Source: Dictyostelium discoideum
Taxonomy: Eukaryota
NCBI GenBank assembly: GCA_000004695.1
Contig: CM000153.2
Coordinates: 5,386,250 to 5,450,249, forward strand
DNA length: 64,000 nucleotides
Reading direction: 5' to 3'
Part shown: piece after piece, positions 1,851-62,246 of the stretch
Position numbering within the stretch: the first letter of the stretch is position 1
Layout of the letters: each line of letters opens with the position of its first letter
Made by a program: the position numbers and the translations under genes
Notes under the pieces: generated by a model
What the model was told of the DNA's origin: nothing
The model's input: only the letters and a program-made list of their open reading frames with translations
Databases searched by the model: none

Positions 1851-4800
1851 ATGATAAATAATAAAATTTTAATAGCAATATTAATTTTAATATTATTAAT
1901 TAAATTATCAAATTCATTATGTATACCAATATTAGGTGGTATATGTATTTTGGAAGGACCATTATTACTTGATGTTAGTCAATTATTTTCAAGTCTTGAT
2001 TTAAAAAGTAATCCATTATCAATTCTTGGATCAATAATAACGATAACTGGTAAATTAACATGTGATTCAACTATATCATTATTAGGTGGTACATTAGTAT
2101 TACAAGGTTTAATTGAAATTAAAGCTGGATGTGTATTTAAAATTGGCAATGAAACTGTAATTGAAACTTCATCATCACTATTGTCAATGCCATTGTTATC
2201 AGTTGAATTTTTAAATTCAAATGGTAATTCATCATTAACATTTAAAAGTTCAAATAGTAATTCAGCATTGGATTTACAATTCTTTTCATTAAATGGTACA
2301 GAAACACCAAAATTTATATTTAATTCAAATAATGTTTCAATTTCAACATCGTTTTTACATTTACCAATTTCAAGAATTGGTAAAGCTATAGTTAATATGG
2401 GTAATAAAATTGGTAGTAAATTAGAGATTAGTAATGATTTTAAATTTGATAGTTTATTAATACAAAATTCAATCTCACAATTATTATTACCCGATCAAAT
2501 CGATATTAGTACATTAACATTAACAAATGTTAACAATGTATTAGGTTTATCAAATTTATCACCAACAATTACAAATTTATATACTCAATTAAATTTAATA
2601 CTTGATTCAACAAATATATCATTTAATAAAAAAGTTTTTTTAAAGTCAATAAATTCAATTTCAAGTAATTTAAATTTTTTAAATTCAAATATTATAATTG
2701 GTGTTAATAATGGTAATATAATAAATTCAATGATTCAATTTAATGGTAATGAAAATAATCAAATTTTAGATTTATTTGGTAATTTAAATTTAGTTTCAAC
2801 AATTTCACCAATTATAAATTCAATTCAACAATTAGTTACAAGTTCAACCAATAATAATAATAATGGTATAATTAGATTAAATAATGGTTTAATTAATTCA
2901 AATTTAATAATTGGTAATGATTCAAGTTTAATTTATAAATTAAATTGTCAATTAATCGGTGGTACAATTGGTGGTACAATTAATTCAATTGGTGGTTTAT
3001 TTTTACCAAATCAATTAAATTTATTAGAAAAATTAAATTTAAATTTAAAAAGTTTATTAATTGATTCTGGTCAAATTTTATTAAATAATTCAATTTTAAA
3101 TATTAAAGATTCAATTGGTTTCAATAACAATGTAATTGGTACAATGAATTTAACAAATAGTTTATTAGAATTAGGTGGTAACATTTTTAATAATACTTCA
3201 AATTCATTTAAAGATTTATTATTAATAAATGTTAAATTATCAGCAAATAATTTAATTTTAAATATTGCAAATAATATTATTCTACCAAATCGTATTTCAT
3301 TAGGTATTGGTTCAACTTTACACTTTGTAAATGGTATTGAAAATGATTTAAAATTTCAAACAACTTTAGATTTAAATTTATTAAATTCAATTTTAAATAC
3401 AAATTTTGTTTTTGTAATTTCAACATCATCTTTAATATTTTGTAATGGTCAATCACCACCAACTATGATACAATTACATGGTAGTTCAACTTCAACCTAT
3501 CAATTTATGTGTGATAATAATATGATTGTAATGAGATTAACCAATTGTTTTGGTGGTTATATTTGTCCTTCAAATGATCAATGTGTATCAAATGAATCAC
3601 AATGTTCATCAATTGATGATCAATCGGCAGTATTACCAGCTTGTAATGTAAATGAAATTCGTTGTTTATCAGGTTGTCATTCAAATATTGATTATTGTAA
3701 TAATACTCAATGTATAAGTGAGGGTGGTACAATTGAATGTTTATCACCAACCACTGCCAAAAGTTTAAAATATAATGGTTGTCCATTTAATTATTTTCAA
3801 TGTGGTGATGGTTCTTGTCATTTAAATAAATTGGATTGTTGTGTTGTTGGTATAAATTGTACTCAATCTTTATTGGTTTCAACATTTGTTAAACCAGAAT
3901 TATCGTACTCTCCAATTCATACTTTAAAAGATATGAAAGTTCCAATCATTTCAAAATCGAAATCAACTGGAATTTTAGATATTTATGGTTACGTTTCAAT
4001 GCCAAGTGGTTTCTTAACTATAAATTCACTAAGTAAATTAAAAATAACCTATAAAGATGATTCTTATTTAGATTCAGTAAATGGTGATGAAATTTGGGGT
4101 ATTGATTCAAATATATCTCAATATAGACAGTCTGCAATTAGTATGATATTCGATATTTCAATCGATACAATTCCAAATCCAATTTTTAATCATAATATAA
4201 CATTTGAATTAAAAGTTAATAATCTTCAACTTTTAAATTTATCAAATTATTGTCTTTACTATATTAATACTACTCAAAATAAATGGAATTGTGAAACTAG
4301 TTCAACTATTTCAATATCTCCAAGAAATACTTTGTTAGTTACAACTCCTCATTTCACTGATTTTGGTGTTTTACTTAATAATTATAAACCTCAAACAACT
4401 CGTCCACCTGCTGGTGGTGGTACTTGGACAAATCCAACATTTACAACAACTGGTACTACAACTGGTACTACTACTGCAACTACAACTGCAACTACTACTG
4501 CAACTACAACTGCAACTACAACTGCAACAGGTAGTTCAAATCCTACTACAACAACAACTACTAATCAACAAACAACAACAACAACAATTTCTCAAACCAC
4601 CAATGGAGGTGATGGATCATCAATTGATACAACAACTGGGGGATCATCAAATCCTACTACTACTGGTACTACAACTGCAACAACTTCAGGTACTACAACT
4701 GCTACAACTACTGCTACAACTACTGCAACAACAACTGCAACAACAACTGCAACAACAACTGCAACAACAACTGCAACAACAACTGCAACAACAACTGCAA

Positions 4801-5027
4801 CAACAGGTGTAACATTAACAGAAGAACCAATATCAGATGAAGAAGATAGTAATAAAAATACAATTATAATGTCAACAACAATATCAGGTGGTGCATTAGT
4901 TATAGCTGGTGTATCATCTTATTTTATAAATAAAAGAATAAGACATGGTCGTGTAGTATATTGGTGGAAACTTAGAAAACCACCTCCCTCTCAACTTGAA
5001 TTAAGTACAACTACAACAAAAGTTTAA
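1851..5027 (+). CDS. Large type I membrane glycoprotein (1058 aa). It has a signal peptide, an Asn/Leu-rich repeat region, a Cys-rich EGF-like module, a Thr-rich mucin-like stalk, a C-terminal TM helix and a short basic tail
   Basis: Single long ORF. An A-rich tract precedes the ATG at 1851. N-terminal hydrophobic leader MINNKILIAILILILLIKLSNSLC. A Cys-dense region (CPSNDQCVSNESQCSS...CGDGSCHLNKLDCC). Tandem 9-bp ACAACTGCA units encode TTTATTTAT at 4447-4800. Hydrophobic segment GGALVIAGVSSYFI followed by KRIRHGR. Confidence 0.7.
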   Translation: MINNKILIAILILILLIKLSNSLCIPILGGICILEGPLLLDVSQLFSSLDLKSNPLSILGSIITITGKLTCDSTISLLGGTLVLQGLIEIKAGCVFKIGNETVIETSSSLLSMPLLSVEFLNSNGNSSLTFKSSNSNSALDLQFFSLNGTETPKFIFNSNNVSISTSFLHLPISRIGKAIVNMGNKIGSKLEISNDFKFDSLLIQNSISQLLLPDQIDISTLTLTNVNNVLGLSNLSPTITNLYTQLNLILDSTNISFNKKVFLKSINSISSNLNFLNSNIIIGVNNGNIINSMIQFNGNENNQILDLFGNLNLVSTISPIINSIQQLVTSSTNNNNNGIIRLNNGLINSNLIIGNDSSLIYKLNCQLIGGTIGGTINSIGGLFLPNQLNLLEKLNLNLKSLLIDSGQILLNNSILNIKDSIGFNNNVIGTMNLTNSLLELGGNIFNNTSNSFKDLLLINVKLSANNLILNIANNIILPNRISLGIGSTLHFVNGIENDLKFQTTLDLNLLNSILNTNFVFVISTSSLIFCNGQSPPTMIQLHGSSTSTYQFMCDNNMIVMRLTNCFGGYICPSNDQCVSNESQCSSIDDQSAVLPACNVNEIRCLSGCHSNIDYCNNTQCISEGGTIECLSPTTAKSLKYNGCPFNYFQCGDGSCHLNKLDCCVVGINCTQSLLVSTFVKPELSYSPIHTLKDMKVPIISKSKSTGILDIYGYVSMPSGFLTINSLSKLKITYKDDSYLDSVNGDEIWGIDSNISQYRQSAISMIFDISIDTIPNPIFNHNITFELKVNNLQLLNLSNYCLYYINTTQNKWNCETSSTISISPRNTLLVTTPHFTDFGVLLNNYKPQTTRPPAGGGTWTNPTFTTTGTTTGTTTATTTATTTATTTATTTATGSSNPTTTTTTNQQTTTTTISQTTNGGDGSSIDTTTGGSSNPTTTGTTTATTSGTTTATTTATTTATTTATTTATTTATTTATTTATTTATTGVTLTEEPISDEEDSNKNTIIMSTTISGGALVIAGVSSYFINKRIRHGRVVYWWKLRKPPPSQLELSTTTTKV
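4447..4800 (+). repeat. Coding tandem repeat (9-bp unit ACT/ACA ACT GCA) encoding a poly-Thr/Ala mucin-like stalk
   Basis: The periodic actgcaaca units are visible in the sequence. They translate to TTTATTTATTTA. Confidence 0.8.
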
Positions 5028-5421: not shown

Positions 5422-7014
5422 ATGAATAATTATTATTATATTTTAATATTTTTATTATTTATAAATTTATTAATTGTTAAAGGTGATGATGTTCAATGTA
5501 ATACATTTGTAAATTCACAATCAAATATGGATCCAAGTGAATGTGGTTCTTCATCAAATAATGCATGTTCAAATATTTCACAATCAATTTTAAATTGTGG
5601 TGAATTTAATGAAATTATAATTACAATTAGTCCAGGAAATTATTCAATTAATAGTGAAACATTTGGACCAATTACAAATAAGAAAATTACAATTTTAAAT
5701 TCTGATCAACCAATTATTCAACCATCAGTTATTATTAATTTATCAAAATCAGTTTCTCCATTTATTAGATATATTCCAACAACTATTGATGATACATTAA
5801 CAGTATCATTAAATGGTATAACATTTGAAAATGGTATTCAAAGAGGATCAGTATTATTAAATAATGGATCTGGTATAATTAATTTATCAGTTGTAAATTG
5901 TGCATTCATTAATATGTTGGATTCAAGTTATGGTAGTACATTTTCATTCACTAATAGTAGTAGTTTAACAACACCAACAACAATTGGTATTGTTTCAATT
6001 AGTAAATCAACTTTTTCAAATTCAAATTCAAATCAAATGGGTGGTTTTATTTATAGTATTAATTTACCAATTCAATTTACAATTGATCAAAGTAGTTTTT
6101 TAGGTCAAAATATTAGTGGTACTGGTATTAGTGTTGCAATTTTAAATGGATACTTGTCAGTTTCAAATACAATCGTTAAAGGACTCTATACAAAATATCC
6201 ATTCTATTTACAAAGAAATAATGGTATTAAATCAGCAATGACAACTTTTACATTTAATAATGTTACATTTAAAGATTTAACCGAAGGTTTTGCTATAATG
6301 ATAACTGGTGATAAAACAACATCAACTGAAATTAAGAATTGTACATTCACCAACACTGTTAATATTTCACCAATTTTCATTCAAGGTATTTCTCAAGCAA
6401 ATATTCAGTCATGTACTTTCACTAATAATACAAATACACTTTCACTATTAAATAGTGCAGGTGGTATTTCAATTGAATCAACCACTGCAACTATTAATGA
6501 TTGTGTTTTCTTAAATAATAAAGCAAGACTAGGTGGTGCAATTTCAACAAGTTATTGTGATCTTCAAGGCGTTACAATTACAAATTCAACATTCCAAGGT
6601 AATAGTGCTCAGTATTTTGGTGGTTCAATTTATAATGTCAATTGTAATACTACATTTAAAAATGTTGATTTCTCAAGTTTAGTTACAAATATTTCAACAG
6701 TTTATTGTTCAGCTTCAAATATGATATTCTCTTCTTCAAATTTCACAGATTCTGGTAAAGAAATAAATGATTTAAGTAATCTTGGTATTATTTGTAATTC
6801 AAATCCTTGTGCTATTACAATTGATTCAAAACCATCAATTCAATGTCAATATAATGAAAATGATTCAAATGATAATAAAGGTGGTTTATCAACTGGTCAA
6901 AAAATTTTAATTGCTTTCGGTGTAGTTATTGGTTTAATAATTATAATTATAATTATTGTTATTATTGTTAGAAAAGTTAAAAAAAATAGAGAATATAAAC
7001 CATTTGGTTATTAA
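5422..7014 (+). CDS. Secreted/membrane protein (530 aa) with parallel beta-helix-like repeats (GGxI/S, NxTF motifs; pectin-lyase or Pmp-like fold), a C-terminal TM helix and a short cytoplasmic tail
   Basis: ORF with signal peptide MNNYYYILIFLLFINLLIVKG. Repeated motifs NCTFTN / GGAIS / GGSIYN / TITNSTF. C-terminal [22 protein letters not shown] then RKVKKNREYKPFGY. Confidence 0.6.
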   Translation: MNNYYYILIFLLFINLLIVKGDDVQCNTFVNSQSNMDPSECGSSSNNACSNISQSILNCGEFNEIIITISPGNYSINSETFGPITNKKITILNSDQPIIQPSVIINLSKSVSPFIRYIPTTIDDTLTVSLNGITFENGIQRGSVLLNNGSGIINLSVVNCAFINMLDSSYGSTFSFTNSSSLTTPTTIGIVSISKSTFSNSNSNQMGGFIYSINLPIQFTIDQSSFLGQNISGTGISVAILNGYLSVSNTIVKGLYTKYPFYLQRNNGIKSAMTTFTFNNVTFKDLTEGFAIMITGDKTTSTEIKNCTFTNTVNISPIFIQGISQANIQSCTFTNNTNTLSLLNSAGGISIESTTATINDCVFLNNKARLGGAISTSYCDLQGVTITNSTFQGNSAQYFGGSIYNVNCNTTFKNVDFSSLVTNISTVYCSASNMIFSSSNFTDSGKEINDLSNLGIICNSNPCAITIDSKPSIQCQYNENDSNDNKGGLSTGQKILIAFGVVIGLIIIIIIIVIIVRKVKKNREYKPFGY

Positions 7015-10799: not shown

Positions 10800-12533
10800 T
10801 TAATAAAATAAAGTAATAAAGATTAATAATAATAAAAATAATGATGATGTTGATAATAATTTTGAAGTTGAATTACTTGAATATTTATCTTGATCACAAA
10901 TTTTACCAGTTTTGGTTGGTAAACATTGGCATAGACCAGTGACAGGATTACAAGTACCACTATTACTACAACCTTGTGTTGTTGTATTGGTTGAAGAAGT
11001 TGGAGAAGTGGTACCATTGGAAAATGATTGACCTGGGCAAAGTGAATAGAATGAAATTGTTGAAGTATCACTATCTGGTGCTATATTATTTCTTTGACCA
11101 TCAACAGTTATAACATAAGAGATTGGATTTTGTAAAATTTCAACACCAGCTTCATAGTAACATACAATTGTTGAACTTGTAATTTCTAATACTTTACATG
11201 GTTTATCAGCGATTGTAATTGTAGTATTTGTATAATTTGCCCAATTTGTACCATAAAATGTGAAATTCAATTTATTATTAACATAAAATCCATTTGGAAC
11301 AACTGCATCAATAATTGGTTTTTGATAATGTGATTTAAATTCATTCGAATCATGATTAACATTATTCCCAACTGATCTTGAAAAAATTGAAAATGAAATT
11401 GAATCATTTAAATTTCTTTGTGGGAATTTACATTTTTTATAATAAATATTATTATTACTTGATGATGAAGTTGTTGCTTTTGTTGATGATGATGAAGAAT
11501 CTGATGTTGATGATAATGTGTCATCACCATTGTCATCATCATCAGTATTTGAATCTTTAATTAAAATTGTTGAACAATTTAATTTTGTTGATGGTGATAA
11601 ATAAATATCAGATAAGTAACTACCAGTTATATTAATTGTATCACCATTATAATTTGGAAAATCAACATTTGTAATTATTGGTGTTAAATATAATGGTAAT
11701 GTATTTGATTGTTGAGAATTTGCATTTACATAGATATTACCACTTGAAGAATCACTATTAATTTTAATTAATAAATTTGTATCGTTAATTGATAAGATAT
11801 CAGTTAACTTTGTAATGATTAATGAATCATTATTAAAATCATGGATTTCAACGAAAACTAATTTCATTGATTGTTTTGATCCAAAATTTGTACCACTAAT
11901 ATTAAGATATTGTTGAGTGGTTTTATTATTATTATCTTTAATGTCAACAACTGATAATGATTCAATATTTGGTAATTCATATTTGAATTTAATTGAATTT
12001 GATTTTTTACCACTATCAACATTTGTTAATGATATGGTTAGAGGTGTTTGGAAAAAACTTGGTGGATAGAATTTAACGGAATCAGATGCTGTTGAATTTA
12101 TATCAACATTTGAACCACCAATGGTAACAAGTAAATGAGTTGATGTTTTGTTTGTTTCTGGATTTGAATTTGCGTTGAAATAGAATCCTCTAATTGTGAT
12201 TTCAATTGATGATGTTGGTATTACTTTTGGATCCATACTTGAAATATATGGTGATAATACAACTGTGGTTATATCAATTACATTTGTACCTTCTTCTTTA
12301 TCATACACCAAGAATCCACCATTAATTGATTTGGCTGGTGGGAAACATGTCAATATTGTAGTATTAATTGAACATAGTTGAGTAATATCACCAATATTTG
12401 AAAAGGAAATTGTATATTTGTCAATGGTTTTATCAAATTCTCCAGTAACTATTATTTTTTCATTTGTTTGACTATAACCACATTTTGATAATATTATTGA
12501 ATTTATTATTAAAAATAATAATAATAATAATTT

Positions 12534-12536
<3 letters not shown>
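10800..12536 (-). CDS. Cell-surface glycoprotein (about 578 aa) with a signal peptide, beta-rich ectodomain, C-terminal EGF-like Cys module and hydrophobic C-terminus (probable GPI anchor)
   Basis: The ORF track start at 12614 lies in a poly(A) leader read-through. The likely true ATG is the second Met (MKLLLLLFLIINSIILSKC) at 12536. EGF-like GCSNSGTCNPVTGLCQCLPTKTGKICDQ. Ser-rich omega region then LFLLLLIFITLFY at the end. Confidence 0.6.
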
Positions 12537-12573
<37 letters not shown>

Positions 12574-13829
12574 ATTATAATATAGAATAATTTATGAATA
12601 ATTAAATTATACAAATAATAAAATTATGTGAAAAAAAAATTAATATTGAGTTTAATAATCAAATTAAAAAAAAAAAAAAAAAAAATAAAAATAAGAAAAA
12701 AAAAAAAAAAAAATTTTTTTAATTGGGGTTTTATTAATCAAATAAAAAATTTAAAAAAATATATTTAAAAATTAAAAATTAAAAATTAAAAATAAATAAT
12801 AATAATAATAAAAAAAAACTTGTATGATTCTAAGCTGTGGTCAATAGAAAATTTTGAATATGTAATTGTGGGGTTTTTTTTTTTTGTGTATGATTTAAAG
12901 AAAAACCACTAATATTAGAATTTTAAACACATACATTTTGACGGTTAAATTAAATAAACATGTGGCATACCACCACCACCAACCCCTTGATGTTAAAAAT
13001 AAATAACAAAAAAAAAAATAAAAATAAAAATAAAAAAATTAAACTTCCCATTTTGATAGTGGTGTCTTTATCTATTTTCTGAAATTTTCTATTTTTATTT
13101 TCACACACAATCAAAAGAAATATTTTTTAAATTTATGATGTGTAAAAAAAAAAAAAAGTTTTTATTGATAAATTGTTTTCAGCTTTTTCAAGCTTCTTTT
13201 AATTTTCTTTTATATTTTTTTTTTTTTTTTTTTTTATTTATTTCTTTTTTTCTTCCTCCCAATTTTTATTTGTTTGTTGAGAACCTTTGGTAACCTCTTT
13301 GACTTTATATAATTGGTTTTTTATTTTTATTAACTCTTTTCTTTAAATTATTACTTCTTTCTGCTGCAAAAATCAGACCTAAACTCTAGTATAAAAGGAA
13401 GAGGAAAGCCATTAGCCAAAATTGAATGACAAAAAGAGTTCAAATCTTTAAAGTTTGACTTCTTTTGGCTGCAAAAATCATACCATTTATTTTTTCCTGA
13501 TTTATTTGATTTTAATTATAAATATATAAATTCAAACATTATAATTATAAAAATAAAAAAAAATAATAAAAAAAAGTTATTAACTTTAAAATAAAGTTTT
13601 TTTATTATTCATCTGGTTAATATTTTCCAAGACCTTCATAAGTTCTTTTTTTGTTTACTTTTCCTATGAAACAGATTTTTAATAAAAAAAATATATAAAT
13701 AAGTAAAAATAAAAAAAAACAGTGGGATAAATATAAAAAAAAAAAAAAAAAATGATAAACCATTTTTATCTCTACGTGTCAATAAAAAACAAGTAAAAAT
13801 AATTAAGACTTAATGCATTTATTTTTGGA

Positions 13830-34287: not shown

Positions 34288-34338
34288 ATGTTGTTTGATT
34301 TAATAAATTCATTTTTAAAGAATGGAATAAATAATAGC

Positions 34339-34370
<32 letters not shown>

Positions 34371-36255
34371 TAATTTTTATAATTCTTTGGAGGATGATGA
34401 TTATTTATTAAATAATCAAACAACCAAAGTATCATTGTATTTGTATTTCTTTATATTTGCATTTATGTTTTTAGTAGTGGATTTAATAATGTTATATTAT
34501 AAACATAGAGAGAATATAGAGTCAAGAGAAACTGATCTATCTTTAAAATTAAATAAAATGTTAATAGATTTTGAAAATGATAATAAAATAAAATCATCAC
34601 CAACAACATCTACTACAACAACTACAATAACACCAACTACTACTTCATCATCACAATTAAGACAACCATCAACACCAAAAACAACAACTAAAACAATTAA
34701 TTCACCACCATCAACACCAAAATCACCACCACCTTTACCATCATTAGAATCAAAACTATTATATAAAGATGATATTAAACAACAATTATCATTAAATGAA
34801 GCAAAGAGTCAAATTGATAGTGCTAAACAACTGGATGAATCATTAAAATATAATAGTTGTATTAAATTATATATAGATGGTATCGAGAAATTAATGGCAT
34901 TATTCTCAAGTTACAACTCTAAAGAATATAGAGATTATATTGATTTTTACCTAAAAAGAGCGGAATATTTAAAAAATGAATTAAAAAAAGGTACAAATTT
35001 AAAATCAATAACTAATTTTAATAATTTTTCAAAAGAATATCAAATAAATTATAATAATAAAATTTTAGAACAGCAACAACAACAACAACAACAATCATCA
35101 TCAACATATAGAAACTCATTAAATTTATCTTCTTCTAAATCAAATTCAACTATAAATAATAGACATTCAATATCTTCATTATCTTCATTAAATTCAACAA
35201 CAGCAACAACAACAACACCATCAAATACTTCAACAATAACAAGTCCGGGTAATAAATATGGATTACAAAAAAGTTTATCATCAACAACATTATCATTAAA
35301 AAAATCATCAAATTCAACCAATTTTCAACAACCTTCACCACCATCAATGGTTATACCAGATATAAAAGGAATTGATAAATCTATGGTAACATTAATTATG
35401 AATGAAATTATGGATAGAAAGAATCCTGTTAAATGGGATGATGTGGTTGGATTGGATAAAGTTAAACAATCATTGATGGAATCAGTTATTTTACCAAATT
35501 TAAGACCCGATGTTTTCACAGGTTTAAGGGCACCTCCAAAAGGTTTATTATTATTTGGTCCACCAGGTAATGGTAAAACAATGATTGCCAAAGCAGTTGC
35601 CTATGAAAGTAAAGTAACATTTTTTAGTATCTCTTCAAGTTCACTAACTAGCAAGTATGTAGGTGACGGTGAAAAATTGGTACGTGCATTATTCGCTGTT
35701 GCAACTCATTTTCAACCTTCAATTATTTTCATTGATGAAATTGATTCATTGCTAACTGAACGTTCTTCAAATGAATCTGAGGCATCTCGTCGTTTAAAAA
35801 CAGAGATTTTAGTTCAATTCGATGGTGCTAGAACAAATGGTGATGAAAGAGTATTGGTAATGGGTGCAACTAATAGACCAGAGGATTTGGATGATGCTGC
35901 ATTACGTCGTCTCGTTAAACGTATTTATGTTGGTTTACCAGAACTTGAAACTCGTTTACAAATTATTCAACATTTACTAGTGGGTCAAAGACATTCTCTA
36001 ACCAAACAACAAATTAATTCACTAGCTGAAGTAACTCAAGGTTACAGTGGTTTTGATTTAGCTGCACTTTGTAAAGATGCTGCTTATGAACCAATTAGAA
36101 GATTAGGTATAGGTATTAAAGATTTAGAATTAAATGAAATCTCTCTTATTAGTTTTAAAGACTTTGCTAATAGTTTAAAACAAATTAGACCATCAGTAAC
36201 TTCTCAATCTTTAAAATCTTTTGAAAAATGGAATCAAAAGTTTGGAACTATTTAA
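34288..36255 (+). CDS. Spastin-like AAA ATPase (N-terminal hydrophobic hairpin, MIT domain, AAA cassette), 655 aa
   Basis: TM hairpin [27 protein letters not shown]-like helices [39 protein letters not shown]: [58 protein letters not shown] (Walker A), [12 protein letters not shown] (Walker B), and [14 protein letters not shown]. The linker and pore-loop residues match the spastin/katanin meiotic clade. Confidence 0.85.
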
Positions 36256-36440: not shown

Positions 36441-39229
36441 TTAAATTTTATTTTTATTTAAACCAACTTTTTCTAATTTTCTTTTTAATGTTTGTTGTAA
36501 CATTTTATTCTTTTTATTTTTATAAAAGTAATAAATAATACAAACTATAATGACTGTTAAGAAAGCAACACCACCAATGACGATACCAGCGATTTGACCT
36601 TTAGTAAGAGATGAATTATTTGAACAAATTGAATTTTCAGAATTACTGGATGCTGCTCTTTGATCAATAATGATTGAAAAGTCTGGATCAATAATAACTT
36701 TATTCGAATATTGTGGAATTGTAATTCCAATAAAACTTTGAGTTGAATATGAATTTGATATTGGTTTCATTGTTGAATCTAATAATATATTTTCAATTGA
36801 TTGAACTTTTGAATCGATAATTGCACGTTTAATAAATCTACCATAGACTGAATGATTATCTACTTGAATCTTTATATAATTTGAGTCATCACCACTTGTT
36901 GTATTACCAAATTCTTTTGATGAACAAATATCATCATTGTTTTCACTTGATATTAATGATGCTGACATTACAAATTGTAATGTATTTAATGATTGTGAAA
37001 ATGGATATTTATTAATTTCGATTGTATATTTAATTGATGATGGATTCATTATTAATTGTTGATTTGCAAATTCAACTATACTACTTTTATTAAACCATTC
37101 AATTGTTGCACTAATATTTGTAATAGTATTTGTATTTGAATTAACAATTGATGTTTCATATAAATTTTTATTACTTTCGAGTGGTGTAAATATCCATTTA
37201 TCAAAAGTATATAATTTAATTTGTTCACCTTTATAATTTAATTCTCTTAATGATACTAATGATATTAATGATTTAAATATTATTTTTGATATATTTTCAT
37301 CACTATCACTACTATTATCAGGTGATGGAATTGGAATTTCAGTTGATGGTGTAGTTGTATTTGTTGATGGTTGTGGTACTATTATAATTTGAGAAGTACA
37401 AGTTAAACCAATAAATGGTGGATAACAAATACATCCACCGTCTTTACAAATACCTTGGTTTGAACCTCCACATTCTGGATTACCTTGACATTTTTGTGGT
37501 GGGTTTGTTGGTATTGGACTAACTGTTGGTATTGGTGTTGTGGTTGGGGTTGTGGTTGGTGTTGTAGTTGGGGTTGTAGTTGGTGTTGTAGTTGGTTCAA
37601 TTGGGTCTGTATAATTAAAAAAGAATAGTTTTGGTTGAACTATAAATTCATTTGATTCCATAGATGTTGAAGAACTTGTAATTTTAATTGTAAAAGATTG
37701 ATTTGTTGATCTAATATTTTCAATATAAATAAAACTATCAAAAATTGTTTTTGGAATAAATGATATATAATTTGCACCATCACCACCATCAGAGTATTTT
37801 AAAAGTACTCGAATTGAATTAATATCTCCAATGTTTCCATATGTTAACATTCTACCATAAATCATTAAATTACCACCATAATTTGTAATTGAATTGGTTG
37901 ATGAGATATATGGTTGATTATTTGTAAAAATACTTGTATTTATTGAATGATCAAAACCTAAATTTATAAGTGATTGAGTTGGATAACCACTATAATAACC
38001 TCCATTATTTATAAATCCAAAAACTGATAAAATGATACCATTCATATTACCAAAACCGATTGGTACAGTAGTTGTACATACGAATTTTGTTTTATATTGA
38101 AATGGTGTTGAATTTGTTGAAATACATTTATGTATATCTAATTCTAATGTTGTTAAATAAACAATTGGGAATTGATTATCTCTAATACCTGTTTCTTGAT
38201 CTTCACATTCGAATTCAAATGTAATACTTCTATCACCTAATGATCCAACATCTAAACTACTTTTACTACTTTTAAATGATAAAAGCATTGGTCCTGTTGA
38301 ATCATTAATACCACCACTACAAATGTTATTAATTGGTGATACTAAAACTATTGATGTATCATTTAAATAGTTTATAAATGGATTAAATTGTGATGACTCT
38401 GGATCTTCAGATAATTTAATATAGGAAGCTTGATTATTAAAAGTATCATATAAAATTACATCTGTGATTTCATAAGGTTGTTGAATACATTGTAATTGAT
38501 TTTCTTCAATATAAATTTCATATTCACCATTCCATTTATCACCTTTGATTGCTTTTGATGGTTCGATTGTAAAATTATGAAGTGAAGAATCGATTGTACC
38601 TCTAACTGAAATATAACCATTCTTTAATCCATTTATATTATCTTGAATAGTAACTAACCAACCAAATGTATCTTTTGGTAAATTTGATGGATTCTTTATA
38701 ATTTTACTAAAAATTGGTCCATATATATCAATATCTATGAAAAAAAAAAACGGTTAATAAGAATTTATGTATCAATATCTGTGAAAAAAAAAAAAAAATA
38801 ACATACTTTTTGAAATTAAATTTAATTGTGCAGATTGTGGTAGTTCAGAACTAAAGATTTTAATTTCTTTTGAAAAAGTTAAATAATAATTAGCAATACC
38901 AGTCATAGTGTTTGCAGGAATATTAAACATTACTTGATATCTATTATCTACCCATTCTGCGAAAATGTAATTTTCTTTAATTTCTCTATTATTTGAATTA
39001 ACTACTGAATTAAATTGATTTTCAGTTAAAGTTTTTGGATCCATTAAACTAAAACCAATTGATAAATCTTTATAATTATTAATATTTGTAAAATTAAAAT
39101 AAATAATATTTGAAACTGATTGATTTGTAACATGAACATTATTATATAAAAATGTAATATTAACTAAATCTTGAAAATTAAATTCTAAAAAATAAATATA
39201 TATATTTTAATAAAGGAGAGAAAAATGTT

Positions 39230-39275
<46 letters not shown>

Positions 39276-41362
39276 AAACATACCATTAATTTCAACAGAA
39301 GGTAATCGAAATGACTTTTGATTTAAAAATGAAATTGGTAAACCAATGTAATATAAATTAACCATACCAGAAAATGTTAATACTTTCATTAATTTTCCAT
39401 TTGAATCTTTTCCACCTAATACACCATCATAAATGGTTTCCCAAATTCCATGATAATAATCACCTGATACAATATCGTTTGGTGTTAAAGTAAAGGATGA
39501 TTTATCGGTATCACCTCTATATCTAATAGATTTAATTGGATATGGACCAATAGTTGATAATGTAAATTGAAGTAAAAATTTAAAGTTACCTAAATAAACA
39601 GAGTTGAAATCTTGAATTTTTCCTACGATTGTTTCATTATATGGTACGATATTGATTGGTTTGAATTCAATGTATTTGGAAAAAGAAATACTTATAAAGG
39701 TAAATTTCATATAATCAATAAAATATTGATATGTAATTGTTGAAACTGTTAAATTAAAATTTAAATTATTTCCTTCAGTGAATGCATAAGGGAATGGTTC
39801 AGCATAATTATTAAATTGATCAGTAGCATCATAATGTATAATTTTAAAATCATAATCCTTATTAAAATTAAGACTAACTGTATAAGTTGTTATTGTTTTA
39901 TTTTCGAAGATTGGATATGTAATATTATCTGATAATGGTAAAAATGGAGCTATTTTTTTTTAAAATGAAAAATTGGATTAGAAATTTTTTATTATTAATT
40001 ATTATTAATTATTATTATTATATTTTATATTTACTAGTAATAGAATTTGTAAAATCATAACTATTGTAATTAGGTTGACCATTTTGATAAAATAAAGAAT
40101 ATGAGCCAGGAAGATAGGAAAGACAAGATGCAATGAATTCAATATTACCTAAACTTCCTAAAATTGGTGTGACGATAAAATCAGTGGAACCATAAAATGA
40201 TAATTGAAAGCTTGGCATATTTGTGATATTTGTTTTTGTAAGTTTGAATTTAATAATTTGACCATAAAATAATGTCATTGCTATTATATCTGTTTGGTTT
40301 GGATATAATGTAAAATCTGTAATTTCACTATCAAGAATAGTTGGTGTTGTTTCTTTTTAAAAAAAGATGATTTTTAAAATAAATTTTAATATTATTCTTA
40401 TTATTTATTATTTATTATTTATTATTTATTATTTATTTATTATTTATTATTTATTATTTATTATTTATTATTTATTATTTATTATATATTATATATTATA
40501 TATTATTTATTATATTTTATTGATAAATACCATATTTGTATGTTATATTAAATGAAAGTTCATCGCCGTTAATTGGTAAAATAACTTTCCAATTGGGTGT
40601 TGTTTGAGTTCTAACAAAAGTATTAATGAATTTGATTCTATATAAATATGTATCTGATAATTTGACAATACTATATGATGGTGCGTCTGATAAAATTATA
40701 GGTCTTGGTAATCCATTTAATTTGAAAACTGCTGAATAATATGACATTTCATTGTATGTTATATCATTAATTAATGTAACTGATAGTTTTGATACATCAA
40801 CAACTTTTTCATTTTAAAAAAAATAAAATGTCATGGTGGTAAAGAAATTATAATTAAAAAAAAAAAAAAAAAAGTTAGGAAAAATCAAATAGAGATTTTT
40901 TATATTTTTTATTTTCATTTTTTTTGAAAATAAAAAATATAAAAAAAAAATAAAAAATAAAAAAATTGAATAATTACAGTTGCACGAATAATTTAAATTA
41001 ATATCAGATTCTGGAAATCCTGGAATTGTTACATTTGAAGTATAGGTTCCTTTTGAAATTTCAATTTCAAAGTTGTAAATAGCAGAATTTTCATTTTTAA
41101 CAATTGAACTATACACAAAAAAACTTTGAGAATCTAAAAATACTTGAATTGGTGGACCAGTTTGATCAAGAATATTGATAACTAAAATATTAATTGTAAT
41201 CTTACATTTAAGATCACCAATAGGTGATGGATAGGTATCTAATTCCAATTGGGAATTAATACATGAAGTTTCATACTTTTTTTGACAACTTACACAACAA
41301 AATAAATAAAAAATAAAAAATATAAAAACAAGTAAAGATCTTTTATTTATTGTTGTTGCCAT
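36441..41362 (-). CDS. Large type I transmembrane surface glycoprotein (about 1437 aa) of a multigene family. Six exons: complement(join(36441..38734,38807..39184,39284..39949,40035..40352,40531..40803,40978..41362))
   Basis: A signal peptide (MATTINKRSLLVFIFFIFYLFCCVSC) sits in the 5' exon. All five introns (72-178 nt) have GTAAGT/GTATGT/GTAAAT/GTATTT/GTAATT donors and (t)ag/aag acceptors, and every exon length closes the phase with the flanking ORF-track frames. The last exon has a (TTPTTTP)n stalk, an EGF-like module CQGNPECGGSNQGICKDGGCICYPPFIGLTCTSQ, the TM helix IAGIVIGGVAFLTVIIVCIIYYFY and a basic tail. The architecture resembles the Dictyostelium IPT/EGF adhesion (Tgr-like) families, but I cannot assign the family. 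Confidence 0.6.
40380..40500. repeat. (TTATTTA/TTATT)n minisatellite inside intron 4 of the large glycoprotein gene
   Basis: The periodic repeats tatttattatttattatttatt lie within the 40353..40530 intron. Confidence 0.7.
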
Positions 41363-60562: not shown

Positions 60563-61794
60563 ACAGAATCAAGTGAATTTATAGTTCAACCAAAACTTTT
60601 TAATTATACAGATCCAATTGAACCAACTACAACACCAACTACTTCATCAACCACAACACCAATACCAACAGTTAGTTCAATACCAACAAACCCACCACAA
60701 AAATGTCAAGGTAATTCAGAATGTTGAGGTTCAAGCCAAGGTATTTGTAAAGATGGCGGATGTATTTGTTATTCACCATTTATTGGTTTAACTTGTACTT
60801 CTCAAATTCACCATCAACTGAAATTCCAATTCTATCACCTGATAGTAGTGGTGGTAGTAATAGTGGTGATGAAAATATATCAAAAATAATATTTAAATCA
60901 TTAATATCATTAGTATCGTTAAGAGAATTAAATTATAAAGGTGAACAAATTAAATTATATACTTTTGATAAATGGATATTTACACCACTTGATAATTATA
61001 AAAATTTATATGAAACATCAATTGATGTTAATAATACAATTACAAATATTAGTGCAACAATTGTTGAACCAGGTTTAATAAAAGTACTATTATAGTTGAA
61101 TTTGCAAATCAACAATTAATAATGAACCCATCAATTAAATATACAATTGAAATTAATAAATATCCAATTTCACAATCATTAAATACCAATCAATTTGTAA
61201 TGTCAGCATCATTTATTTCAAGTGAAACCAATGATGATATTTGTTGTTTGTCAAAAGAATTTGGTAATACAACAAGTAGTGGTGGTGGTGGTGGTGGTGG
61301 TGGTTGTGGTGGTGGTGGTTGTGGTGGTGGTGGTGGTGGTGGTGGTGGTGGTGGTGGTGGTGGTGGTGGTGGGTGATGATTCAAATTCAATATAAAGATT
61401 CAAGTTAATAATCATTCAGTCTATGGTAGATTTATTAAACGTGCAATTATAGATTCAAAAGTTCAATCAATTGAAAATATATTATTAGATTCAACAATGA
61501 AACCAATATCAAACCTTCATATTCAACTCAAAGTTTTATTGGTATCACAATTCCACAATATTCAAATAGTGTTATTATTGATCCAGACTTTTCAATCATT
61601 ATTAATCAAAGTAATTCTGAAATTTGTTCAAATAATTCATCTCCTACTAAAGGTCAACGATCGCTGGTATCGTCATTGGTAGTGTTGCTCTCTTAACAGT
61701 CATTATAGTTTGTATTATTTATTACTTTTATAAAAATAAAAAGAATAAAATGTTACAACAAACATTAAAAAGAAAATTAGAAAAAATTGGTTAA
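60563..61794 (+). pseudogene. Decayed, inverted partial duplicate of the 3' exon (C-terminal half) of the large glycoprotein gene at 36441..38734. It has frameshifts, an in-frame stop and a (GGT)n expansion
   Basis: Three ORF-track fragments in different frames align colinearly to the parent: STESSEFIVQPKLFNYTDPIEPTTTPT...NPPQKCQGNSEC* against MESNEFIVQPKLFFFNYTDPIEPTTTPT...NPPQKCQGNPECGG; STEIPILSPDSSGGSNSGDENISKIIFKSLISLVSLRELNYKGEQIKLYTFDKWIFTPL against STEIPIPSPDNSSDSDENISKIIFKSLISLVSLRELNYKGEQIKLYTFDKWIFTPL; MNPSIKYTIEINKYPISQSLNT.QFVMSASFIS against MNPSSIKYTIEINKYPFSQSLNTLQFVMSASLIS. The TM and tail (...YYFYKNKKNKMLQQTLKRKLEKIG*) are recognisable at the 3' end. Confidence 0.7.
61270..61376. 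repeat. (GGT)n trinucleotide expansion (~35 units), GC-rich, inside the pseudogene copy. Absent from the parent gene
   Basis: The run ggtggtggtggtggttgtggtggtggtggttgtggtggtggt... encodes poly-Gly (poly-Pro on the other strand). At the same position the parent has SGDDSNY. Confidence 0.85.
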
Positions 61795-62246
61795 AATAAA
61801 ATTTAAACTTTTTTAAAAAAAAAAAATTAAATTACAATCAATCATTATTATTATCACCATAAACCTCATAAACATAATTTTAAATCTCAAATATAAAAAG
61901 TAAAAATTTTCAATAATAAAAAACATTTTTTTTTTTTTTTAAAATTAAAATTAATTTAATATCTAAAAAATTTTTATATTTTGAAAATTCCAATTTAGGA
62001 ATTTTCAAACAAATCTTGAAAATCTGTTAAATAAATAATTGTTAATAGTATTATTAAAAGTAATGAGTTAATTAAAATAAGAAGTATTATTATAGTTAAT
62101 AAATAATTTTATTTGATAAAATTTAACATTTTATCACATTTATTTTTATTATTATTATTAAATATTTTGGTTATATTTATTATTTATTTATTTATTATTT
62201 ATTATTTTTTTTAATTATTATTTTTTTTTTATATTAATTTTGTTTT

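Follow-up and report, generated by a model that had tools for sequence, protein, structure and literature searches.

A six-exon gene of Dictyostelium discoideum predicted to encode a ComC-family surface glycoprotein

The 64,000 nucleotides of Dictyostelium discoideum DNA analysed here (the window) contain on their minus strand a six-exon gene. As judged from its sequence, the gene product is an uncharacterised member of the known, lineage-restricted ComC family of surface glycoproteins. We assign a probability of about 0.8 to the reading that this is a single intact gene for a ComC-family type I transmembrane glycoprotein, which would form a rod on the cell surface and may serve in adhesion or communication. 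As a gene call, this result carries little weight: it concerns a reference genome with curated models, a family that is defined in Pfam, and a structure that is annotated in orthologues. The gene itself is almost certainly annotated already, because the spastin ORF next to it shows 100% identity to spastin of D. discoideum AX4 (Q54KQ7). The useful outcome is a correction of a first-pass annotation: the protein resembles ComC and not Tgr or csA proteins, it possesses an additional supersandwich domain, and it does not form a cluster with the genes at positions 1851 and 10800.

Results

The six-exon gene model is supported by homologous genes

All coordinates of the previously proposed model, which comprises six exons and 1437 residues, check out (Table 1). 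The start codon (41362-41360) is the first ATG of its ORF, and the N-terminus of the protein aligns with that of the D. citrinum homologue P0001. The exons add up to a CDS of 4314 nt (385+273+318+666+378+2294), which codes for 1437 residues plus a stop codon and contains no internal stops. All five introns start with GT, end with AG and are in phase 1; their GC content is 3-18%, compared to 20-26% for the exons. Each of them would introduce in-frame stops if retained. Given a stop probability of 0.094 per codon on the strand of the gene, the shortest exon would be open by chance with a probability of 1e-4, and exon 6 with one of 2e-33. The ORF ends 11-32 nt past the donor at four of the five junctions, and the downstream frames begin merely 4-22 nt ahead of the acceptors.

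The first-pass annotation had argued that five consecutive phase-consistent joins are improbable. This argument is weak, as 8-27 alternative in-frame GT-AG pairs exist per junction within +/-150 nt, close to the third of all pairs that chance would leave in frame; its conclusion is nonetheless right. The strong evidence is comparative and consists of the intron columns and phases of homologues and of the pattern of indels. The comparison covered six homologues, whose gene models are themselves predictions; they stem from D. citrinum, D. dimigraforme and D. discoideum. The introns are located in alignment columns 143, 264, 394, 648 and 783, and agree in position and phase with annotated introns of the homologues. 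Junctions 2, 3 and 5 are matched in all six genes and junction 1 in five; junction 4 is likewise matched in five, the fourth intron of the sixth gene being two columns off (650). The protein alignment is gap-free at four of the five junctions. At junction 1, P0001 is short by two residues, which corresponds to two codons at the end of exon 1, and the model of the homologue P0003 is aberrant. Five of the six gene models that were mapped have an exon 2 of 273-279 nt. In comparison with the closest homologue, all gaps in exons are multiples of three, whereas those in introns have lengths of 1, 2, 8, 10, 13, 19 and more nt. The dN/dS values relative to P0001 are in the range of 0.12-0.50 in every block, which is consistent with purifying selection. 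In summary, coordinates, splice dinucleotides, the open CDS and the intron positions of homologues all agree, and the sequence data confirm the six-exon model.

Table 1. Exons, introns and predicted protein features of the ComC-family gene (positions refer to the window)
Feature	Position	Strand	Description
Exon 1	40978..41362	-	385 nt; aa 1-128 + 1 nt
Intron 1	40804..40977	-	174 nt; GTAATT..AAAAG; phase 1; 11% GC
Exon 2	40531..40803	-	273 nt; aa 129-219; about one beta-sandwich domain
Intron 2	40353..40530	-	178 nt; phase 1; 3% GC
Exon 3	40035..40352	-	318 nt; aa 220-325; about one beta-sandwich domain
Intron 3	39950..40034	-	85 nt; phase 1; 7% GC
Exon 4	39284..39949	-	666 nt; aa 326-547; about two beta-sandwich domains
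Intron 4	39185..39283	-	99 nt; phase 1; 8% GC
Exon 5	38807..39184	-	378 nt; aa 548-673; about one beta-sandwich domain
Intron 5	38735..38806	-	72 nt; phase 1; 18% GC
Exon 6	36441..38734	-	2294 nt; aa 674-1437 + stop at 36443-36441
DUF7035 (PF23034)	38349..38732	-	aa 675-802; Pfam E=6e-35, 120.7 bits, cut-off 27
DUF7034 (PF23033)	37929..38291	-	aa 822-942; Pfam E=5e-30, 104.7 bits, cut-off 27
Third beta-sandwich of exon 6	37605..37928	-	about aa 943-1050; strands in AF2 model
Pro/Thr-rich linker	37491..37604	-	aa 1051-1088; predicted disordered
EGF-like 6-Cys module (DUF7949, PF25820)	37386..37490	-	aa 1089-1123; Pfam E=5.5e-13, 49.4 bits, cut-off 27
ComC supersandwich domain (ComC_SSD)	36669..37301	-	aa 1152-1362; membrane-proximal; galactose-mutarotase-like
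Single TM helix	36522..36593	-	aa 1388-1411; IAGIVIGGVAFLTVIIVCIIYYFY
Cytoplasmic tail	36444..36521	-	aa 1412-1437; KNKKNKMLQQTLKRKLEKVGLNKNKI; 26 aa, basic

The predicted protein consists of a multi-domain ectodomain, one TM helix and a short tail

Hydropathy alone indicates two hydrophobic segments only, residues 7-28 and 1385-1412, and hence a type I topology. The first segment looks like the core of a cleavable signal peptide with a likely cleavage site after VSC26. The second one contains the TM helix, reaches a mean KD of 2.87 and is kept in all homologues. In the following tail, no recognisable enzymatic or signalling domain was found.

The ectodomain is predicted to contain nine Ig/FnIII-like beta-sandwiches, approximately six of which are encoded by exons 1-5 and three by exon 6. 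Exons 1-5 contribute roughly one domain per phase-1 exon and exon 4 contributes two; exon 1 encodes the signal peptide in addition to the first beta-sandwich, and exon 4 is the part that diverges most between paralogues. A comparison of the six exon/domain blocks by means of hhalign detected no internal duplication (best probability 0.8%); the N-terminal domains are therefore not recent repeats. The model of the N-terminal part was built on a D. citrinum proxy with 80% identity and has a pTM of 0.69, whereas the pTM of the C-terminal model is only 0.39; the underlying MSAs were shallow and contained 14-17 sequences. The first full codon of exon 6 is also the first codon of DUF7035. According to the predicted model and a fold search, DUF7035 and DUF7034 would both adopt an FnIII-like beta-sandwich fold. 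The third beta-sandwich of exon 6 had no match in the Pfam copy that was searched. Taken together, the beta-sandwiches of exon 6 match triple-FnIII structures in the fold search, for example gp130 D4-6 and contactin FN1-3; at the sequence level, the C-terminal profile had no match in the PDB.

The Pro/Thr-rich linker contains a (PTTT)5 repeat with a period of four (residues 1054-1074, 37533-37595), and the pLDDT is below 50 across the corresponding residues 370-419 of the C-terminal AF2 model. By analogy with known Pro/Thr repeats of Dictyostelium, it is a likely site of O-glycosylation. The 28 N-x-S/T sequons do not represent an excess over the 25.5 expected from composition, and heavy N-glycosylation is therefore plausible only. 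The EGF-like module has the spacing C-x5-C-x7-C-x4-C-x-C-x8-C, and its six cysteines (C1089/1095/1103/1108/1110/1119) show no or almost no variation.

The architecture proposed in the first-pass annotation thus stands with respect to the signal peptide, the beta-rich ectodomain, a Thr/Pro segment, the EGF-like module, the TM helix and the tail. It had to be revised for the presumed (TTPTTTP)n stalk: the repeat has the form given above, and it is located between domains and not next to the membrane. The supersandwich domain of approximately 210 residues between the EGF-like module and the TM helix had been missed.

The domain content assigns the protein to the ComC family

Four Pfam domains, namely DUF7035, DUF7034, DUF7949 and ComC_SSD (PF22933), score above their gathering cut-offs. 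The same Pfam set, with the DUF7035/DUF7034 pair upstream of the EGF-like module, is precomputed for nine out of nine homologues. ComC-family proteins share these four domains in the same order as well as the signal peptide, the single TM helix and the short tail. This likeness to comC is one of shared domains and not of orthology, and identity with comC itself is not implied.

Of 1.84 billion representatives searched with the N-terminal 640 residues, only 18 proved to be relatives. Those of full length comprise approximately 1300-1400 residues, one has 2686, and the remainder are shorter fragments. The ends of ten relatives were read, and every one of them has the same C-terminal motif and a TM helix followed by a short tail. 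All relatives that were looked up by name belong to Dictyostelium. A homologue search with residues 675-1053 returned only one fragment, P0010. Among the paralogues recovered from the same species, DDB_G0293664 is the closest with 56% identity, followed by DDB_G0278919 with 33%; both are unnamed "EGF-like domain-containing proteins". A search for literature on these two and on neighbouring DDB_G identifiers found none.

The EGF-like module expected from the first reading was recovered as DUF7949. In contrast, the lead towards IPT/TIG domains and the tgr, lag and csA families was wrong. IPT/TIG (PF01833) had no match in the 1437 residues even at E<=1, and the identical Pfam search detected TIG in the ORF at 10800 with E=6e-19. 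The protein is therefore not a Tgr protein.

The window contains one degenerate copy but no local cluster

A local cluster of related glycoprotein genes, including those at 1851 and 10800, had been proposed. These genes belong to unrelated families. The ComC-family protein has no significant similarity to the products at 1851, 5422 and 10800, and the best BLASTP E-value is 0.4. The product at 1851 has no Pfam match; the one at 10800-12614 is an IPT/TIG and EGF protein with a hydrophobic, GPI-like C-terminal end. Both genes are located 24-35 kb from the ComC-family gene, and housekeeping genes (TRAPPC11-like, CysRS, prenylcysteine lyase, spastin) lie in between. They share with it only the generic layout of secreted glycoproteins.

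Within the window, only one sequence is truly related to the gene; it lies at 60566-61852, 19 kb away, and was absent from the first-pass annotation. It is a degenerate partial copy of the 3' end of the gene, contains one stop, at least four frameshifts and a microsatellite insertion, and is a new finding.

Sister species possess tandem arrays at the syntenic locus

The syntenic locus of D. citrinum contains a tandem array of at least four copies (ACTFIV_005019-005021 and a fourth one), that of D. dimigraforme an array of at least three (ACTA71_011464-011467), compared to one intact copy and one relic in D. discoideum. The flanks are common to the species: orthologues of an SHPRH-like gene and of orf41889 are located on one side, spastin, orf32828 and CysRS on the other. 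The array members are 65-79% identical to the gene in the window. Those with well-predicted models have the same main structure of six exons and five phase-1 introns; the annotated models P0002 and P0003 contain an extra 5' intron, and P0003 is also aberrant in exon 2.

The 3' halves of the D. citrinum paralogues are nearly identical (dS 0-0.08), whereas exons 1-4 are old (dS 0.4-0.97). This contrast indicates gene conversion of the membrane-proximal half. Tandem arrays whose 3' halves appear to be homogenised in this way are a further new finding. In the distal domains, dN/dS between paralogues reaches values of up to approximately 1. D. dimigraforme contains the fragmented copy P0010 and a fragment of 315 residues, and the family shows birth-and-death dynamics.

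Discussion

The domain composition suggests that the protein forms a long rod, which carries N- and O-glycans and is exposed on the cell surface. The fast-evolving, membrane-distal Ig-like domains encoded by exons 1-4 would bind a ligand, either in the matrix or on a second cell. The EGF-SSD-TM module, which is conserved and membrane-proximal, would anchor the protein and probably couple it to a membrane partner, because the tail of 26 residues is too short for signalling alone. A role in developmental cell-cell adhesion or communication is suggested by analogy with comC, for whose mutants aberrant aggregation is listed in Table 1 of PMC2873529. In Table 3 of PMC4931340, comC is listed with EGF domains, a signal sequence and a TM segment, and as conserved only in group 4 dictyostelids; a literature search for comC turned up no mention beyond these two tables.

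Could the gene be assembled or preserved differently? It is quite improbable that exon boundaries differ or that the six ORF pieces stem from more than one transcript. The abundance of alternative in-frame GT-AG pairs and the annotated exon 1 of P0001 leave some room for such errors. However, the chosen sites align without gaps with most homologues and retain the nearly invariant Cys127, the intron columns and phases agree with annotated genes, and ORFs close soon after four of the five donors and open just before the acceptors. Moreover, a signal peptide is found only at the start of exon 1 and a TM helix only at the end of exon 6. That the gene is a pseudogene or decaying copy and intact in appearance alone is very unlikely. 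The decayed partial copy in the same window and the birth-and-death dynamics of the family, exemplified by the D. dimigraforme fragments, show that members can be lost; the 1437 codons without stop or frameshift, ten intact splice dinucleotides, the dN/dS values and the exclusive occurrence of exon indels in multiples of three relative to D. citrinum argue for an intact gene. The real pseudogene at 60566-61852, with its stop, frameshifts and microsatellite, makes the contrast clear.

Two further alternatives concern the nature of the protein. A Tgr/Lag-type protein of allorecognition or adhesion, or a csA-like adhesin, would have a similar broad design of signal peptide, Ig-like sandwiches, EGF-like motif and membrane anchor. 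The distal domains of the ComC-family protein also evolve fast, and an IPT/TIG gene is indeed located elsewhere in the window. This assignment is nevertheless hardly tenable, as IPT/TIG is absent at E<=1, all four Pfam matches are to ComC-family domains, the TIG protein of the window has no sequence similarity, and the relatives from the exhaustive search are all of ComC-type architecture. The csA protein (gp80) carries a GPI-type C-terminal anchor and has no cytoplasmic tail; here, the hydrophobic segment is followed by a basic tail of 26 residues. Finally, the SSD-TM-tail module may resemble GLMP (glycosylated lysosomal membrane protein, the accessory subunit of MFSD1). As an accessory subunit, it would then be obligatory for a multi-pass membrane protein, which it would bind and stabilise, or it would bind carbohydrates, and the protein would serve mainly as a chaperone of a transporter or receptor and less as an adhesin. 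We regard this as improbable: the two sequences are only 10% identical, the supersandwich is a widespread fold, and its model is of moderate confidence. As the Ig/FnIII rod of approximately 1100 residues is absent from GLMP, an extracellular binding role of the ComC-family protein is favoured.

A more far-reaching suggestion, which is possible but doubtful, is that group-4 dictyostelids possess, in the spastin-SHPRH interval, a second fast-evolving locus for cell-surface recognition in addition to tgrB1/tgrC1. Conversion might keep the EGF-SSD-TM half uniform, whereas the Ig-like domains of exons 1-4 would escape and diversify. Such a mosaic would be typical of receptors that diversify for recognition of self/non-self or of prey/pathogen, and the SSD-TM module could be coupled to a common GLMP-type membrane partner. 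Apart from comC, the ComC family is uncharacterised. Due to the phase-1 structure with one exon per domain, the changes in copy number and the conversion of half of the gene, the locus is a reasonable candidate for cell-cell recognition or adhesion in the evolution of aggregative multicellularity.

Comparison with known systems

TgrB1 and TgrC1 are, like the ComC-family protein, type I surface proteins with Ig-like sandwiches and fast-evolving distal parts from a multigene family that is restricted to dictyostelids. In contrast to them, the protein described here lacks IPT/TIG and has a different set of domains, which includes a supersandwich. No sign of polymorphism or of paired ligand and receptor genes emerged from the comparisons, which covered divergence between species and between paralogues. 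GLMP has no detectable relationship at the sequence level, and it lacks the Pro/Thr linker and the EGF-like module as well as the rod. Metazoan Ig/FnIII receptors such as contactins, PTP-delta, gp130 and the FnIII arrays of Dscam have the same fold, arranged likewise as beads on a string. Foldseek matched metazoan Ig/FnIII proteins with E-values of 1e-7 to 1e-5 at an identity of approximately 10%, and Pfam Ig and fn3 had no match in the gene product; the resemblance of the predicted models is one of structure alone and may be either convergent or very ancient. Metazoan extracellular modules are encoded by domain-sized symmetric phase-1 exons, and the domain-sized symmetric phase-1 exons of the ComC-family gene resemble them.

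Gene model and coding constraint

The GC content of the window is approximately 20%, which is usual for Dictyostelium. The gene model was rebuilt on the minus strand and comprises six exons, whose coding sequence of 4314 nt specifies 1437 residues plus a stop codon and is free of internal stops. All five introns (72–178 nt) are of the GT...AG type, and their GC content is 3–18% versus 20–26% for the exons. The exon and intron coordinates of the first-pass annotation were thus exact. With a stop probability of 0.094 per codon, deduced from the base composition of this strand, the probability that an exon (91–764 codons) is open by chance lies between 1e-4 and 2e-33. Retention of any one of the introns leads to in-frame stops. 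In contrast, the earlier argument that five consecutive phase-consistent joins are improbable is weak, because 8–27 alternative in-frame GT-AG pairs exist near each junction; this is about one third, as expected at random. The exon boundaries are fixed by the closure of the upstream ORF 11–32 nt past the donor at four of the five junctions, by the opening of the downstream frame just 4–22 nt ahead of all five acceptors, and by comparative evidence.

A database search yielded nine full-length relatives. Sequence identities are 79%, 72% and 67% for D. citrinum, 70% and 65% for D. dimigraforme, 56% for D. discoideum and D. cf. discoideum, 33% for a DDB_G0278919-like protein, and 31% for D. purpureum. 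The window protein can be aligned with them end to end, and four junctions are free of gaps; at junction 1, the closest homologue (P0001 from D. citrinum) is shorter by two residues. Six homologous gene models, which are predictions themselves, were obtained by mapping annotated proteins back to the DNA of the fetched loci, and four of them follow the same six-exon plan. Under this plan, the exon sizes are ~352–385, 273–279, 315–327, 663–693, 372–381 and ~2270 nt; the models P0002 and P0003 begin with an additional exon of 3 nt, and in P0007 there is an additional 3' exon. The window introns occupy the same alignment columns (143, 264, 394, 648 and 783) and have the same phase as those of the homologues. 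Compared to the closest gene, the exons are 82–90% identical with gap lengths that are all multiples of three, whereas the introns are 57–79% identical and contain gaps of, among others, 1, 2, 8, 10, 13 and 19 nt. The dN/dS values of 0.12–0.50 relative to this gene in every block point to a constrained coding gene; together with the gap lengths in the exons, they led us to reject pseudogene status.

All five introns are in phase 1, and the internal exons (91, 106, 222 and 126 codons) are domain-sized. Symmetric 1-1 exons are a pattern familiar from metazoan extracellular modules; such clean symmetry is unusual for an amoebozoan gene.

Features of the gene, its protein product and the compared loci
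Feature	Position	Strand	Remark
Exon 1	41362–40978	-	
Exon 2	40803–40531	-	
Exon 3	40352–40035	-	
Exon 4	39949–39284	-	
Exon 5	39184–38807	-	
Exon 6	38734–36441	-	
Exon borders in protein	aa 128/129, 219/220, 325/326, 547/548, 673/674		
Likely signal peptide	aa 7–28		Hydropathy
DUF7035	aa 675–802		Pfam; start coincides exactly with first exon-6 codon
DUF7034	aa 822–942		Pfam
(PTTT)5	aa 1054–1074		
DUF7949	aa 1089–1123		Pfam; 6-Cys EGF-like module
ComC_SSD	aa 1152–1362		Pfam
TM helix	aa 1385–1412		Hydropathy
Degenerate copy	60566–61852	+	Inverted and partial; matches 37658–36389
ORF	1851–5027	+	Signal peptide, Leu/Asn-rich repeats, Cys-rich region, TM helix, tail
ORF	5422–7014	+	Adjoins preceding ORF; Chlamydia-PMP-type repeat match (E = 9e-7)
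ORF	10800–12614	-	Apparently one exon; N-terminus MKLLLLLFLI; signal peptide
ORF, 151 aa	29359–29814	-	
Spastin ORF	34288–36255 (also given as 34288–36252)	+	AAA/MIT ATPase; 100% identical to AX4 Q54KQ7
D. citrinum tandem array	L001 4454–24834		
D. dimigraforme tandem array	L003 411–14922		

Domain composition and family

Four Pfam matches in the 1437-residue protein exceed the curated cut-offs. Hydropathy analysis revealed only two hydrophobic segments: the first is likely a signal peptide cleaved after VSC26, and the second is a TM helix followed by a basic tail of 26 residues. The number of N-x-S/T sequons is 28, compared to 25.5 expected from composition. The signal peptide, the EGF-like module, the single TM helix and the tail bear out the first-pass description as a surface glycoprotein. 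Its family lead did not hold: of the domains it had named, the EGF-like module was found, but no IPT/TIG domain was detected by the Pfam search at E≤1, and the domains are of the ComC type and not those suggested by the tgr, lag and csA families.

The N-terminal 640 residues had no match in the Pfam copy searched. When 1.84 billion representative proteins were scanned exhaustively with HMMER, with a D. citrinum proxy 80% identical to the gene's own product as query, only 18 relatives of this region emerged. The full-length ones have ~1300–1400 residues, one has 2686, and the remainder are shorter fragments; every relative looked up by name is from Dictyostelium. All ten whose ends were read possess a C-terminal '..NSICS..LSKGQIAGIIIG..' motif, a TM helix and a short tail. 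The spastin ORF next to the gene, identical to spastin of D. discoideum AX4, assigns the window to this species. The AX4 paralogues DDB_G0293664 and DDB_G0278919 were recovered from the database. The gene belongs to a known family, of which it is an ordinary member, and lies in a reference genome, where it is almost certainly annotated already as an unnamed 'EGF-like domain-containing protein'. The residual interest is small and concerns the dynamics of the locus and the GLMP-like membrane-proximal domain.

Locus evolution and neighbouring genes

The locus is syntenic with those of D. citrinum and D. dimigraforme. Shared flanks are the orthologues of an SHPRH-like gene and orf41889 on one side and those of spastin, orf32828 and CysRS on the other; the spastin ORF and the gene are convergent, with 185 nt between their stop codons. 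D. citrinum has at least four tandem copies and D. dimigraforme at least three (one copy among the arrays is fragmented), compared to one in the window. Between the D. citrinum paralogues, dS is 0–0.08 over most of exon 6 (≤0.16 in the linker/EGF block), whereas it is 0.37–0.97 in exons 1–4. This difference indicates gene conversion confined to the 3', membrane-proximal half. In the divergent 5' half, dN/dS reaches ~1.2; the second D. citrinum copy is nearest to the 5' half of the window gene (dS 0.34–0.47).

The sole true relative of the gene inside the window is the degenerate copy, which spans the last ~1.27 kb (residues 1031–1434 and ~50 nt of 3' flank) and includes the PT linker, EGF module, ComC_SSD, TM helix and tail. 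Its EGF module is interrupted by an in-frame stop, and the copy further carries four or more frameshifts and a G-rich, (GGT)n-like insertion of ~88 nt (61285–61371). Its nucleotide identity to the window gene (83–90%) is higher than that to any sister-species copy (75–83%), which makes it a lineage-specific pseudogene relic.

A local cluster formed with the genes at 1851 and 10800 had also been proposed, and this proposal is wrong. Their best E-value against the protein is 0.4, unrelated housekeeping genes intervene, and the common ground is only the generic layout of secreted glycoproteins. The ORF at 1851 has a long Thr-rich stalk, (TTTA)n/(TTTG)n, and no Pfam match; it may form a pair of beta-helix-type surface proteins with the adjoining ORF. 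The ORF at 10800 encodes a surface protein of the Tgr-like kind that has no relation to the gene; it contains IPT/TIG domains (E = 6e-19) and an EGF-like Cys motif, and its hydrophobic C-terminus resembles a GPI-anchor signal. The 151-residue ORF matches the Schlafen AlbA_2 domain (E = 1.5e-14).

Predicted structure and function

AlphaFold2 models were calculated for the N-terminal region (D. citrinum proxy sequence, 17-sequence MSA; pLDDT 74, pTM 0.69) and for the exon-6 ectodomain (window sequence, 14-sequence MSA; pLDDT 72, pTM 0.39). Both are all-beta, and in Foldseek they matched strings of Ig/FnIII domains best. To judge from the strand patterns and from dips in pLDDT, exons 1–5 would encode six sandwiches and exon 6 three, such that exon borders would coincide with domain borders and each of exons 1–5 would hold a single sandwich, apart from exon 4, which would hold two. 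No mutual similarity was detectable among the six N-terminal domains. The PT segment is predicted to be disordered (pLDDT <50), and the membrane-proximal domain is predicted to be a beta-supersandwich.

For the family namesake comC, a passage of PMC4931340 describes a signal and TM segment, EGF domains and a restriction to group-4 dictyostelids; a passage of PMC2873529 reports aberrant aggregation of the mutant. Our analysis establishes the topology, fold and family of the protein; localisation, binding and developmental role are those we infer. In the most likely mechanism, the protein would be a long glycosylated rod at the cell surface, whose distal Ig-like domains would bind a partner in the matrix or on another cell. 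The conserved EGF-SSD-TM module would serve as anchor and, because the tail lacks a signalling domain, would be coupled to a membrane partner. At the level of the fold, and with identities of ~10%, the best matches of the predicted models include the ectodomains of PTP-delta and contactin, the MG domains of alpha2-macroglobulin and complement, and the FnIII triplets of gp130 D4-6, fibronectin and Dscam.
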